Below are positions 27,242 to 32,000 of a stretch of DNA of 32,000 nt, in pieces (the first letter of the stretch is position 1; every line of letters starts with the position of its first letter). The translations under genes and the position numbers were made by a program. Source of the DNA: Candidatus Saccharimonadota bacterium (GTDB lineage: Bacteria; Patescibacteriota; Gracilibacteria; BD1-5; UBA6164); assembly GCA_965227835.1 (NCBI GenBank), contig OZ245768.1:780001-812000 (forward strand), given 5' to 3'. The notes under the pieces were generated by a model. It did not search any database. It was given only the letters and a program-made list of their open reading frames with translations, and was not told where the DNA came from.

Positions 27242-29755
<2,514 letters not shown>

Positions 29756-30058
29756 AAAAAAAAATTAAATATTTAACATAATTTATTAAAGATACTCTCT
29801 AGAGTTTTAGTATTATAAATTTCAAAACAATAACCCTAAATAAAAAATCAGATTTCAATTCTCTATCTAGCACAAGAACTATTCTTAATATCACTCATAT
29901 TTTAGATTTAGAAATTTAGAACAGGTAATTAAAATTCATATAAAGGTATCTTTAATTTTGTTTTAGGAGTATATTAAAAACTTGTGTTTAATCAAGAAAA
30001 AATAGTAAAAAATCCGTAAAGTGTATAACACCTTTTGTGATGAAAAATTAAAAAACAT

Positions 30059-30086
30059 TTGACAATATTAATTTAATTAATATAAT
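30059..30086 (+). promoter_or_regulatory. Consensus sigma70-type promoter (TTGACA-N16-TATAAT) for the glycine-zipper gene
   Basis: TTGACA at 30059-30064 and TATAAT at 30081-30086. A small hairpin (cacata..tatgtg) and an AAGGAG Shine-Dalgarno site precede ATG 30141. Confidence 0.6.
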
Positions 30087-30140
30087 ACATATAGTGCACA
30101 TAAGTTTATGTGTATTTAGTCTACCAAAAAGGAGTAAATT

Positions 30141-30506
30141 ATGACTATATGTAAAAAAAGCCTAGCTATATCTGTCTTAGTAGCTATTCTATGCCATTTT
30201 CTATTCGCTTTACCTATAAGTTCCGAAGCACCAAAATTCTTCATATTTGTACATGATAATATTACAATACCTCTTTGGGTGTGTATAATTGGATGTGGAA
30301 TATTATTTGGGATTCCAGAAAAAAAATCTTCCTCAGATAATTTTAAATTGCTTCTGGGATTTATTCTTGGAGGAACCCTTGGATTTATTCTTGGAGGAAC
30401 CCTTGGATTTATTCTTGGAGGACCCCTTGGATTTATTCTTGGAGGAACCCTTGGATTTGTTCTTGGATTTATTCTTGGATGGTCTCTAGGAGAAAAATTT
30501 AATTAA
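30141..30506 (+). CDS. Small membrane protein (121 aa) with a signal/TM N-terminus and a tandem GFILGGTL glycine-zipper repeat
   Basis: MTICKKSLAISVLVAILCHFLFALPISSEA..., then (GFILGG[T/P]L)x4 followed by GFVL-GFIL-GWSL. It has 19 Gly codons and none is TGA. TAA at 30504-30506. Confidence 0.75.
   Translation: MTICKKSLAISVLVAILCHFLFALPISSEAPKFFIFVHDNITIPLWVCIIGCGILFGIPEKKSSSDNFKLLLGFILGGTLGFILGGTLGFILGGPLGFILGGTLGFVLGFILGWSLGEKFN
30357..30479 (+). repeat. 24-bp tandem repeat (ggatttattcttggaggaaccctt), 4 full copies plus degenerate 12-bp half units
   Basis: Units are at 30357, 30381, 30405 and 30429. They are in frame and encode the glycine zipper. The track ORF 30289-30489 is the out-of-frame reading of the same repeat. 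Confidence 0.9.
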
Positions 30507-30580
30507 GCAATAAGCTAACATTTAAAAATCCATAGGAATTATGATTAAATATTTTTTAACTTAGGTTTCAAAAGCTAGGC

Positions 30581-30614
30581 AAAGGACACAGTTGATAAAT
30601 CAACTGTGTCCTTT
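30581..30614 (+). terminator. Intrinsic terminator (aaaggacacagttga-taaa-tcaactgtgtccttt)
   Basis: A 15-bp perfect stem downstream of the glycine-zipper gene. Confidence 0.8.
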
Positions 30615-30714
30615 ATATTAAAATCTAAAAAAGACTTTTTTTCTTCAAAATATTAATTTTTCAATCCTTTATTAAATATAAAAAACACAAAAACTTTTTG
30701 AAAAAAACTTTTTT

Positions 30715-30947
30715 TAGTTAAAGTTAGTACTAATTAAAAGCATTTGAGTTTCGCTATCACGAAACAAGGCTGGAGAAAGAAAGTTTTTAATAAAAACAAG
30801 TAGAATCTCCCGAAGGTGAAATACTTCGTTAAAAAAATAAAATTGAGTACAAGCTTTTTGGTGGTAACTTCCAAAAATTAAGGAGAGATCTCTCAATAAC
30901 TTTGGACCTAAAAGCACACAAATTATATGTTTTTTGTGTGTTTTTTA
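30715..30947 (+). ncRNA. Candidate structured leader / cis-regulatory RNA ending in an intrinsic terminator directly upstream of the mazF-like gene. The class is not identified.
   Basis: No plausible ORF exists in any + frame. There are successive local hairpins: gtttcg/cgaaac (30747-30764), gttttt/aaaaac (30783-30797), cgaag/cttcg (30811-30828), tttttgg/ccaaaaa (30855-30877) and gagag/ctctc (30882-30894). The terminator cacacaaa/tttgtgtg plus T6 is at 30915-30947, followed 15 nt later by GAGGAGG and ATG 30971. Confidence 0.4.
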
Positions 30948-30970
30948 TTTTTTGATTTTGAGGAGGAAAA

Positions 30971-31390
30971 ATGAATTATGTAAATGAACTTAAAAATTGG
31001 TTTGAAGAAAAAATAAAGATAAATGAAAAATATATAAACTTTGAGTATAGGTATAAAAAGTGAGATATATGGTATGCAAATTTATGAATAAATATATGAA
31101 ATGAATTTAATAAAGTTAGGCCTGTATTGGTATTAACAAATAATAAATTTTCAAGATGAAATAACATTATAATAATACCAATTACAAGTTTAAAATCTGA
31201 AAAAAGAATACTAAACACAGATATAATAATTGATACAAAATTTGGTAAAAGACAAAGATCAATTATGAGAATTAACCATTTGAAAGATATTTCTAAAAAA
31301 AGACTTATAAAGAAAGTATGAAGAATAGATGATGATACTCTAAATAGACTGGGTATAAAATTAAAGCTATTGTTTGATATTAGAGAATAA
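30971..31390 (+). CDS. PemK/MazF-family endoribonuclease toxin-like protein (139 aa); no adjacent antitoxin gene recognised
   Basis: ...YKKG(TGA)DIWYANLG(TGA)INIG(TGA)NEFNKVRPVLVLTNNKF...IIIIPITSLKSEKR...RQRSIMRINHLKDISKKRLIKKVG. This is the G-D-I-W...G.E....RPvlVl...v.PiTS pattern of the family. TAA at 31388-31390. Confidence 0.75.
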
Positions 31391-31538
31391 AAAATGCCCT
31401 ACCAAATTGATAGGACTAGACTTCTTAGAGTCAAACAAAAATGAAAGCAAGAGCTTTCTAGTTCTCTTAGGAACAATGCAATTATAACACTTTTTACAAA
31501 AAAACAAAACTTTTTTAAATCTTAACTTTATTTTACCT

Positions 31539-32000
31539 ATGTTCCCAAAAGTAGACCCAAAACAATCTTTTCCAGAACTTGAAGAAGAAATATTGAAATT
31601 CTGGAAAAAAGAAAACATATTTGAAGAATCTATAGAAACTAGATCAAAAGATAATCCATATAGATTTTATGATTGACCTCCTTTCATAACAGGTACACCT
31701 CATTATTGAAGTCTTTTATCAAGTATATGCAAAGATGTAGTACCAAGATATTGGACTATGCAAGGTAAAAGATGTGAAAGAGTATGGGGATGGGATTGTC
31801 ACTGATTACCTATAGAAGAAAAAGTACAAAAAAAACTATGACTAGAATCAAACAAAGATATAGAAAAAGTATGAGTAGAAAAGTTTATACAAGAATGTTA
31901 TAGCTATACCAAAAATACATCAGCAGAATGGGAATGGTATGTGGATCATATTTGAAGATGGGTTGATTTCAAAAACTCATATAAAACAATGGATCAAGAT
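31539..32000 (+). CDS. ileS: Isoleucyl-tRNA synthetase (eukaryote-like type 2), 5' part; continues beyond the window
   Basis: [32 protein letters not shown]...YRFYDG(TGA)[11 protein letters not shown](TGA)[28 protein letters not shown](TGA)LPIE. Confidence 0.88.

Follow-up and report, generated by a model that had tools for sequence, protein, structure and literature searches.

The leader ahead of mazF and ileS

Near the 3' end of the window analysed here (the whole 32,000-nt stretch G000:C1:780001-812000, from the single-contig, 1.49-Mb genome G000), a gene for a MazF/PemK-like endoribonuclease (hereafter mazF) stands between a structured leader and ileS, the gene for isoleucyl-tRNA synthetase (IleRS). 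The leader lies downstream of a terminator at 30580-30615 and itself ends in an intrinsic terminator shortly before mazF (Table 1). Its identification as an isoleucine-tRNA-sensing T-box riboswitch is very well supported, because its anatomy, its match to the genome's own tRNAs, its conservation and its covariation all point to it. Taking the locus as a whole, we consider it highly probable that the leader is a tRNA-Ile T-box with a terminator as its output and that mazF is an antitoxin-less accessory cassette whose expression is coupled to isoleucine starvation. The organism reads TGA as glycine (genetic code 25): GyrA carries TGA at universally conserved glycine positions and, consistent with this, a tRNA-Gly(UCA) gene was found in the genome.

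Table 1. Positions of the features discussed, numbered within the window except in the last row, where genome and contig are given
Feature	Position	Strand	Basis or remark
Predicted T-box(Ile) riboswitch leader, entire	30736-30953	+	covariance model R1: 146 bits, E 1.8e-27
Ultrashort Stem I, 6-bp hairpin with 6-nt end loop	30748-30765	+	read directly from sequence; covariation
Specifier AUC, next base A	30756-30758 (A at 30759)	+	Stem I end loop
Stem II with conserved GAA and AGUA stretches, S-turn-like	30772-30810	+	covariation of helices 2 and 3
Stem IIA hairpin (30811-30828) with F-box-like 3' side	30811-30831	+	helix 4, 97% paired in alignment
T-box sequence: A1 5' strand (30853-30858), bulge UGGU (30862-30865)	30853-30866	+	GGUGGNA invariant in 81 copies
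Antiterminator helix A2 (30870-30875 with 30901-30906), apical hairpin 30882-30894	30870-30906	+	read from sequence
Intrinsic terminator, stem 30910/30913-30942, U tract to 30953	30910-30953	+	folding; hairpin and U-run calls
Shine-Dalgarno sequence GAGGAGG for mazF	30960-30966	+	strong; outside the terminator, no pairing partner in the switch
MazF/PemK-like endoribonuclease gene, 139 aa	30971-31390	+	28-aa N-terminal helix region; five in-frame TGA = Gly
mazF-ileS spacer, four small hairpins then AT-rich block	31391-31538	+	fold z only -1.3
Spacer hairpins	31398-31414, 31419-31432, 31443-31458, 31461-31474	+	fold
ileS, 5' part; full IleRS 1677 aa, extends past the window	31539-32000	+	open reading frame identified as IleRS
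TGTCCGNAATGAC sites	G024:C1:49233, 49823; G019:C1:417798, 418722; G003:C12:7840, 8513; G010:C16:13173, 15304; G026:C48:2191		

A preliminary description of this DNA, made from its letters, had called the leader structured and terminator-ended, with the layout of a riboswitch or attenuator and a terminator at 30915-30947. All of this was borne out: measured against shuffled sequences the leader folds with z = -2.97 into Stem I, Stem II, Stem IIA, the apical hairpin of helix A2 and the terminator, and the terminator coordinates are close enough to ours. The segment 30910-30915 has a double use, either as the 3' strand of antiterminator helix A1, with 30853-30858 as its partner, or as the first part of the 5' arm of the terminator, so that the two structures are mutually exclusive. 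The Shine-Dalgarno (SD) sequence of mazF starts 7 nt past the U tract, and the ATG of mazF comes approximately 18 nt after it. The S-turn of Stem II was read by motif only, and the conserved flanks make a K-turn at the base of Stem I plausible. No Stem III hairpin was found in 30832-30852 of the window copy, and a hairpin at that position occurs in only about 8 of the 81 related copies described below. An element on the minus strand was also considered; it folds about equally well (z = -2.9) but was rejected, as only the plus strand agrees with the conservation, the polarity of the terminator and the order of the genes.

A search of the genome's own DNA brought to light a second copy of the leader (C1:410647-410862), 70% identical to the first and lying directly ahead of aspS. 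The window copy, before mazF-ileS, combines the isoleucine codon AUC in its loop with UGGU in its bulge, and the aspS copy combines the aspartate codon GAC with UGGC. ARAGORN finds tRNA-Ile(GAU) with A73 and tRNA-Asp(GUC) with G73 in this genome, and each copy satisfies both codon-anticodon pairing and UGGN-NCCA pairing with its cognate tRNA. The two copies thus act as a natural swap experiment for T-box specificity. Downstream of the isoleucine T-box, ileS is the sole isoleucine-related gene.

A T-box had been discounted by eye in the preliminary description, a judgement that AUC/UGGU, the tRNA-Ile match and covariation overturn; the very short Stem I is missed by public models as well. The suggestion made there of a novel cis-regulatory RNA gating a toxin holds in so far as a cis-regulatory RNA does lie ahead of the toxin gene, which it would gate, but the RNA is of a known kind. 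Similarly, the alternative that this region is simply a long AT-rich untranslated region is at odds with the presence of the same RNA, with swapped codon and discriminator base, before aspS, and before ileS, aspS and valS in relatives.

Conservation and covariation in relatives

The distribution of the element was followed with a covariance model built from nine copies on a hand-drawn structure. In an RNAalifold structure derived from the first MAFFT alignment, Stem I was lacking and the specifier loop was base-paired to the T-box bulge; that structure gave way to the hand-drawn one, which covariation supports. The model recovers exactly two copies in G000, those of the window and of aspS. One or two copies are carried by 54 of 61 genomes of the same order, which together gave 81 copies for alignment, so that the test of homologous leaders for covariation proposed in the preliminary description comes out in favour of a conserved RNA: 17 of the 18 modelled pairs changed on both sides, and 93.5% of the cells are paired across the alignment, against 32-56% in controls with slid partners. 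Compensatory changes occur in all five modelled pairs of Stem I, which in relatives has 4-6 bp and an end loop of 6-7 nt. In Stem II (helices 2 and 3), both partners have changed in nine of nine pairs, and the share of paired cells is 90-98%. A counterpart of helix A2, variable in length, is present in the relatives' copies, and a terminator hairpin with a U run was called in 81 of 81, its 5' arm coinciding with the A1 3' strand in most, although these calls are automatic and a few look misplaced.

The two variable positions that should read the tRNA change together. Fifty-three copies carry AUC with UGGU, 23 carry AAC with UGGC, four carry GAC with UGGC, one has no recognisable codon and none is mixed. 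Within the invariant GGUGGNA, N is U where the codon is AUC and C where it is GAC or AAC. AUC stands in the loop of 53 of the 54 UGGU copies, the exception being L091, where none is visible. UGGU copies head strings of genes that end in ileS, and all UGGC copies precede aspS. Beyond the order, the model matched 39 of 151 genomes in a sample of the class and 12 of 151 in a sample of the phylum (both counts include G000), and among these the matches in standard-code genomes lie before ileS (AUC), aspS (GAC) and valS (GUC with UGGU). In most relatives the same RNA precedes these three genes without any toxin.

Some features of the relatives deserve mention in their own right. The Stem IIA hairpin is wholly absent from five isoleucine copies (L075, L078, L080, L081 and L083), including those of the same-genus genomes G001 and G002, and Stem IIA would therefore be dispensable in some lineages. 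Among the aspS T-boxes of the order, 23 of 27 have the asparagine codon AAC and four of 27 have GAC, that of G000 among them; AAC at aspS would fit an aspartyl-tRNA synthetase that also serves tRNA-Asn (the indirect asparagine pathway) in most of these genomes. Finally, in genus g18 of family f1, additional AUC/UGGU T-boxes (L155 in G165 and L158 in G162) stand before an open reading frame (ORF) that is about 412 aa long, the N-terminus of which resembles threonine dehydratase (IlvA) by look only.

The mazF-like gene and the ileS operon

The mazF-like ORF recognised in the preliminary description is intact, and under code 25 it matches Pfam PemK_toxin (PF02452) with E 7.7e-22 and 78 bits, against a cut-off of 23.1. 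In an AlphaFold model (predicted local distance difference test 84), a helix of residues 3-19 is followed by the MazF core, and the best Foldseek match is Bacillus subtilis MazF (4mdx; TM score 0.79, 30% identity), with Staphylococcus aureus MazF also among the best. Arg50, which is nearly invariant within this MazF subfamily, aligns with the arginine of the RP motif, and Thr72/Ser73 align with the IT of EndoA; we take these residues to have the catalytic roles of Arg and Thr/Ser in B. subtilis MazF. The protein is predicted to have RNase activity. The TGA codons of the gene fall at conserved glycine positions, and mazF is therefore native to code-25 lineages, within which it has evolved.

No protein antitoxin was found beside the gene. 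Between 30615 and 30970 the plus strand holds no ORF of at least 25 aa, whether under code 11 or with TGA as sense, in agreement with what had been described; the one exception is the mazF frame itself, which can be extended upstream through the terminator to a TTG start. A 43-codon ORF just downstream (31394-31525), offered in the preliminary description as a weak antitoxin candidate, can be set aside: it overlies four hairpins that relatives retain by shape and not by codons, and tblastn finds zero relatives at the protein level. The acidic 77-aa protein conserved in the ileS operons of relatives was likewise rejected as an antitoxin, being mostly found without MazF and absent here. Thus, the adjacent, co-oriented antitoxin gene that marks a type II toxin-antitoxin (TA) system is lacking.

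N-extended MazF relatives, with a common W-F-x-x-K helix motif, occur in 34 of 204 genomes of the order. In the same sample, ribbon-helix-helix-like partners precede short PemK genes at a distance of 4-6 nt, but no N-extended gene has a small partner conserved upstream of it. Next to several N-extended copies are genes with N-termini like those of subunits of type I restriction-modification systems or of other aminoacyl-tRNA synthetases (aaRSs), by motif only. The window's genome has a second PemK gene, without the N-terminal extension (113 aa; G000:C1:173609-174217, L124:1225-1833), which forms a conventional TA pair with an 85-aa Phd/YefM-like ORF 9 nt upstream; directly downstream of that pair is a 200-aa ORF that may be Cas4-like, a guess from motif only.

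The arrangement, in which a structured RNA with its own terminator stands directly ahead of a toxin gene lacking a protein antitoxin, does recall ToxIN and speaks for an RNA antitoxin (of type I/III kind), or a separate small RNA gene neutralising the MazF-like toxin. We now regard this as extremely improbable. The leader contains no tandem repeats such as a type III (ToxIN-like) system would have, the same RNA serves aspS in this genome and toxin-free ileS, aspS and valS in most relatives, and its variable positions follow the identity of the tRNA and not the toxin. Furthermore, only three of 29 N-extended MazF loci have T-box RNA upstream, and all three are ileS operons.

The presence of ileS after mazF, overlooked in the preliminary description, places mazF in a synthetase operon. 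No plus-strand terminator is predicted between the two genes, and the gap of about 18 nt between U tract and ATG leaves no room for a separate mazF promoter; from this arrangement one would predict that mazF and ileS are transcribed together and that the T-box controls mazF. In the proposed mechanism, the anticodon of uncharged tRNA-Ile(GAU) would pair with the AUC of the Stem I loop while its free ACCA end paired with the UGGU bulge, stabilising antiterminator helix A1, blocking the terminator and allowing RNA polymerase to continue into mazF and ileS. With tRNA-Ile charged, the terminator would form and transcription would halt 18 nt before the start of mazF. Read-through at the leader would thus depend on tRNA, and mazF, a passenger that leads the synthetase operon, after the T-box and before ileS, would be made along with IleRS when isoleucine is short. 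Since no antitoxin gene is present, it would fall mainly to the T-box to hold MazF back.

Several observations weigh against this account, and those that concern the RNA come first. An Rfam scan of 29700-32000 at E ≤ 10, a check that the preliminary description had proposed, leaves the leader unmatched, and RF00230 gives zero matches across the whole genome at the same threshold. No leader promoter was confidently found upstream. No partner could be assigned for the IIB pseudoknot in the window copy, and IIB pairing is backed by compensatory changes only in GC-richer relatives. Stem I is without the tRNA-elbow platform which, together with a long Stem I, transcriptional T-boxes are argued generally to need (PMC7583486, section 6.2). 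This last point, together with the resemblance of the decoding half to a class said to regulate mostly translation (PMC10482949), could be taken to mean that the T-box acts on translation by sequestering the SD sequence, as in actinobacterial class III, or that it has decayed into a relic incapable of switching. We think either very unlikely, as the SD sequence lies past the U tract without a pairing partner in the switch, a hairpin and U run were called in all aligned copies, mostly with the A1 3' strand as 5' arm, and the conservation and covariation across the order are those of an RNA under strong purifying selection.

Further observations on the same side concern the operon. The AT-rich block of the spacer (31481-31538) holds a 25-nt look-alike of a stretch upstream of the T-box, and an internal ileS promoter there is possible. 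MazF-like genes are present in only six of the isoleucine operons examined (those of G000, G024, G032, G020, G031 and G095) and are absent from both same-genus genomes, so the pairing of mazF with the T-box may be a recent accident without a selected role. Against this background mazF is best read as a mobile cassette: the genomes of the same genus lack it, and the closest MazF, 61% identical, belongs to a different genus (G024), where the 3' hairpin spacer is also shared and direct repeats flank the unit. Between the spacer and the sequence that follows mazF in G024, identity is 75%; the hairpins differ in sequence but keep their stems. The order T-box-mazF-ileS recurs in another family (G095).

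The T-box may be real and mazF nonetheless a selfish or neutral insertion without a role in the starvation response, tolerated perhaps because its product is weakly active, self-inhibited by the N-terminal helix or countered in trans, as by the Phd/YefM-like antitoxin from the second PemK locus. We hold this to be a serious possibility, if a somewhat improbable one, and it differs from the account given above in biological meaning and not in mechanism. Its patchy occurrence over genera, the sharing of gene and spacer as a unit with a different genus and the lack of antitoxin partners for the N-extended MazF proteins of the order, where the short ones have them, would all suit such an insertion, as would an SD sequence that looks foreign in a genome hardly using SD. 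Strong SD-type sites are scarce in G000, with 1.6% of long ORFs having a site as strong as that of mazF. The SD-like 4-mers GGAG, GAGG and AGGA occur at -20 to -4 in 4.4% of 835 long ORFs compared with 5.7% of random positions, in a rough survey that took the first ATG of each long ORF as its start. On the other hand, the ORF is intact, has kept its catalytic region and uses code-25 glycine codons, and the recurrence of other toxin-type genes (Fic/DOC, NYN) at the same place hints at selection for the location.

The region between T-box and ileS is indeed variable. Within the DNA fetched, ileS lies downstream on the same strand in 47 of the 54 isoleucine T-box loci; it is directly next in three of these 47 and separated by 1-12 ORFs of that strand in the other 44, at a median distance of 1.3 kb and a maximum of 6.4 kb. 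The intervening cargo includes MazG, CYTH, NUDIX, NTPase_I-T, NYN, DUF559, a serine hydrolase, Fic/DOC, membrane proteins and PemK, in addition to the acidic 77-aa protein already mentioned, which is found in 19 loci and has no Pfam match. We offer as a tentative and rather doubtful extension of these data that in this Gracilibacteria-type order the stretch from T-box to ileS could be a dedicated site of cassette capture, placing toxins without antitoxins (MazF, Doc, NYN) and house-cleaning enzymes for nucleotides (MazG, NUDIX, CYTH, ITPase) under tRNA-Ile charging, with the T-box serving as the 'antitoxin' of MazF and the driver of a starvation regulon. The signs that we would name for such a site are copied ileS N-termini, a 13-nt bounding motif in some genera and the 3' hairpin elements.

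Genes directly 5' of ileS at L104:4560-5012(-), L117:1562-1912(+), L056:1339-1860(+) and L098 (NYN-like) begin with a copy of the ileS start, comprising its first 8-24 codons (M..FPKVNPKQSF..), which suggests that insertion may take place just inside aaRS gene starts and duplicate the start region. The N-terminus of a MazF relative from the database (P0045) looks like that of leucyl-tRNA synthetase. The idea that the N-terminal extension of MazF is in general a copied IleRS N-terminus was rejected: it is true of L104 and L117, but the W-F-x-x-K helix is found throughout the subfamily.

Five genomes carry the 13-nt motif TGTCCGNAATGAC with AAACTA after it, each having one or two copies, all of them within its T-box-ileS operon; no copies were found elsewhere in those five genomes, in G000 or in a reversed-pattern control. 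In G024 and G019 two copies lie within direct repeats of approximately 50-70 nt, which flank the mazF cassette in G024 and an insert containing a tRNA in G019. The motif may form a small hairpin whose loop is conserved; a general promoter was ruled out by its confinement to the ileS operon of five genomes and its absence from G000. In T-box-ileS operons at L082:2131-2200 and L108 (minus strand, about 2360), what look like the starts of class II tRNA-like genes (GGAAGGGTG..) come just after this junction motif. As for the hairpins, the last three of the spacer (31419-31474) recur after mazF in G024 (L121) and before the first operon gene in G004 (L102), while in G024 a hairpin of unrelated sequence replaces the first. 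Rfam has no match for this hairpin motif.

Comparison with known T-boxes and toxin modules

What had seemed a novel RNA or an RNA antitoxin becomes a recognisable mechanism, and the reason why Rfam annotation misses such a T-box is now shown. The combination of an ultrashort Stem I with a transcription terminator has been argued in the T-box field to be kinetically disfavoured, and T-boxes of this type are natural test cases for how minimal an RNA can be and still read a tRNA co-transcriptionally. AUC/UGGU and GAC/UGGC within one genome provide a ready-made specificity experiment. What is new is the cargo, that is, the variable genes, MazF-like ones included, between T-box and ileS. Amino-acid starvation and RNA cleavage would be directly linked through an antitoxin-less RNase of MazF type placed under a sensor of uncharged tRNA. 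The zone of variable cargo suggests an undescribed route by which accessory genes are recruited to an essential, starvation-induced operon in bacteria that belong to the Candidate Phyla Radiation (CPR), and the capture site, if real, would provide organisms whose genomes are very small with a starvation regulon. Full-text literature searches returned no paper combining T-boxes with CPR, Patescibacteria or Gracilibacteria.

The nearest relatives in anatomy are the class III ileS T-boxes of Actinobacteria. Their decoding layout, with a short Stem I, the specifier in the apical loop, Stem II and Stem IIA, is described in PMC10482949 and PMC7583486, and they mostly control translation (PMC10482949); for Nocardia farcinica and Mycobacterium we rely on the summaries that these two articles give of Sherwood, Grundy and Henkin (2015). 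Common to both are the sensing of isoleucine, a short Stem I whose end loop presents the specifier, the lack of an elbow platform, an S-turn-like GAA/AGUA in Stem II, Stem IIA with its F-box-like 3' side and a UGGN bulge that reads the tRNA 3' end. The likeness is in this decoding half, to which a K-turn and a IIB pseudoknot may also belong. However, the window copy ends in an intrinsic terminator and U tract where the actinobacterial element sequesters the SD sequence, and it differs further in having no Stem III, in its loop of 6-7 nt and in its host, a code-25 CPR lineage. Furthermore, the same chassis has been re-specified for Asp, Asn and Val.

With class I T-boxes of the B. subtilis tyrS type (RF00230), the leader shares mutually exclusive antiterminator and terminator structures, a Stem II domain, a specifier in keeping with the aaRS under control, and a UGGN-NCCA pairing in covariation with the discriminator base. 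It differs from them in having neither a long Stem I, specifier internal loop included, nor an AG bulge, a distal loop or Stem III. The leader is thus a known kind of RNA in an undescribed variant, one with class III-like decoding, a terminator as output, no Stem III and no visibility to Rfam.

The protein, for its part, has the fold of B. subtilis MazF/EndoA (4mdx, 1ne8) and its conserved Arg and Thr/Ser active-site region. In contrast to that protein and to type II mazEF modules, the gene in the window has no adjacent antitoxin and encodes an extra, conserved N-terminal helix with the W-F-x-x-K motif, and it sits not in an autoregulated TA operon but in an aaRS operon under the predicted control of a riboswitch.

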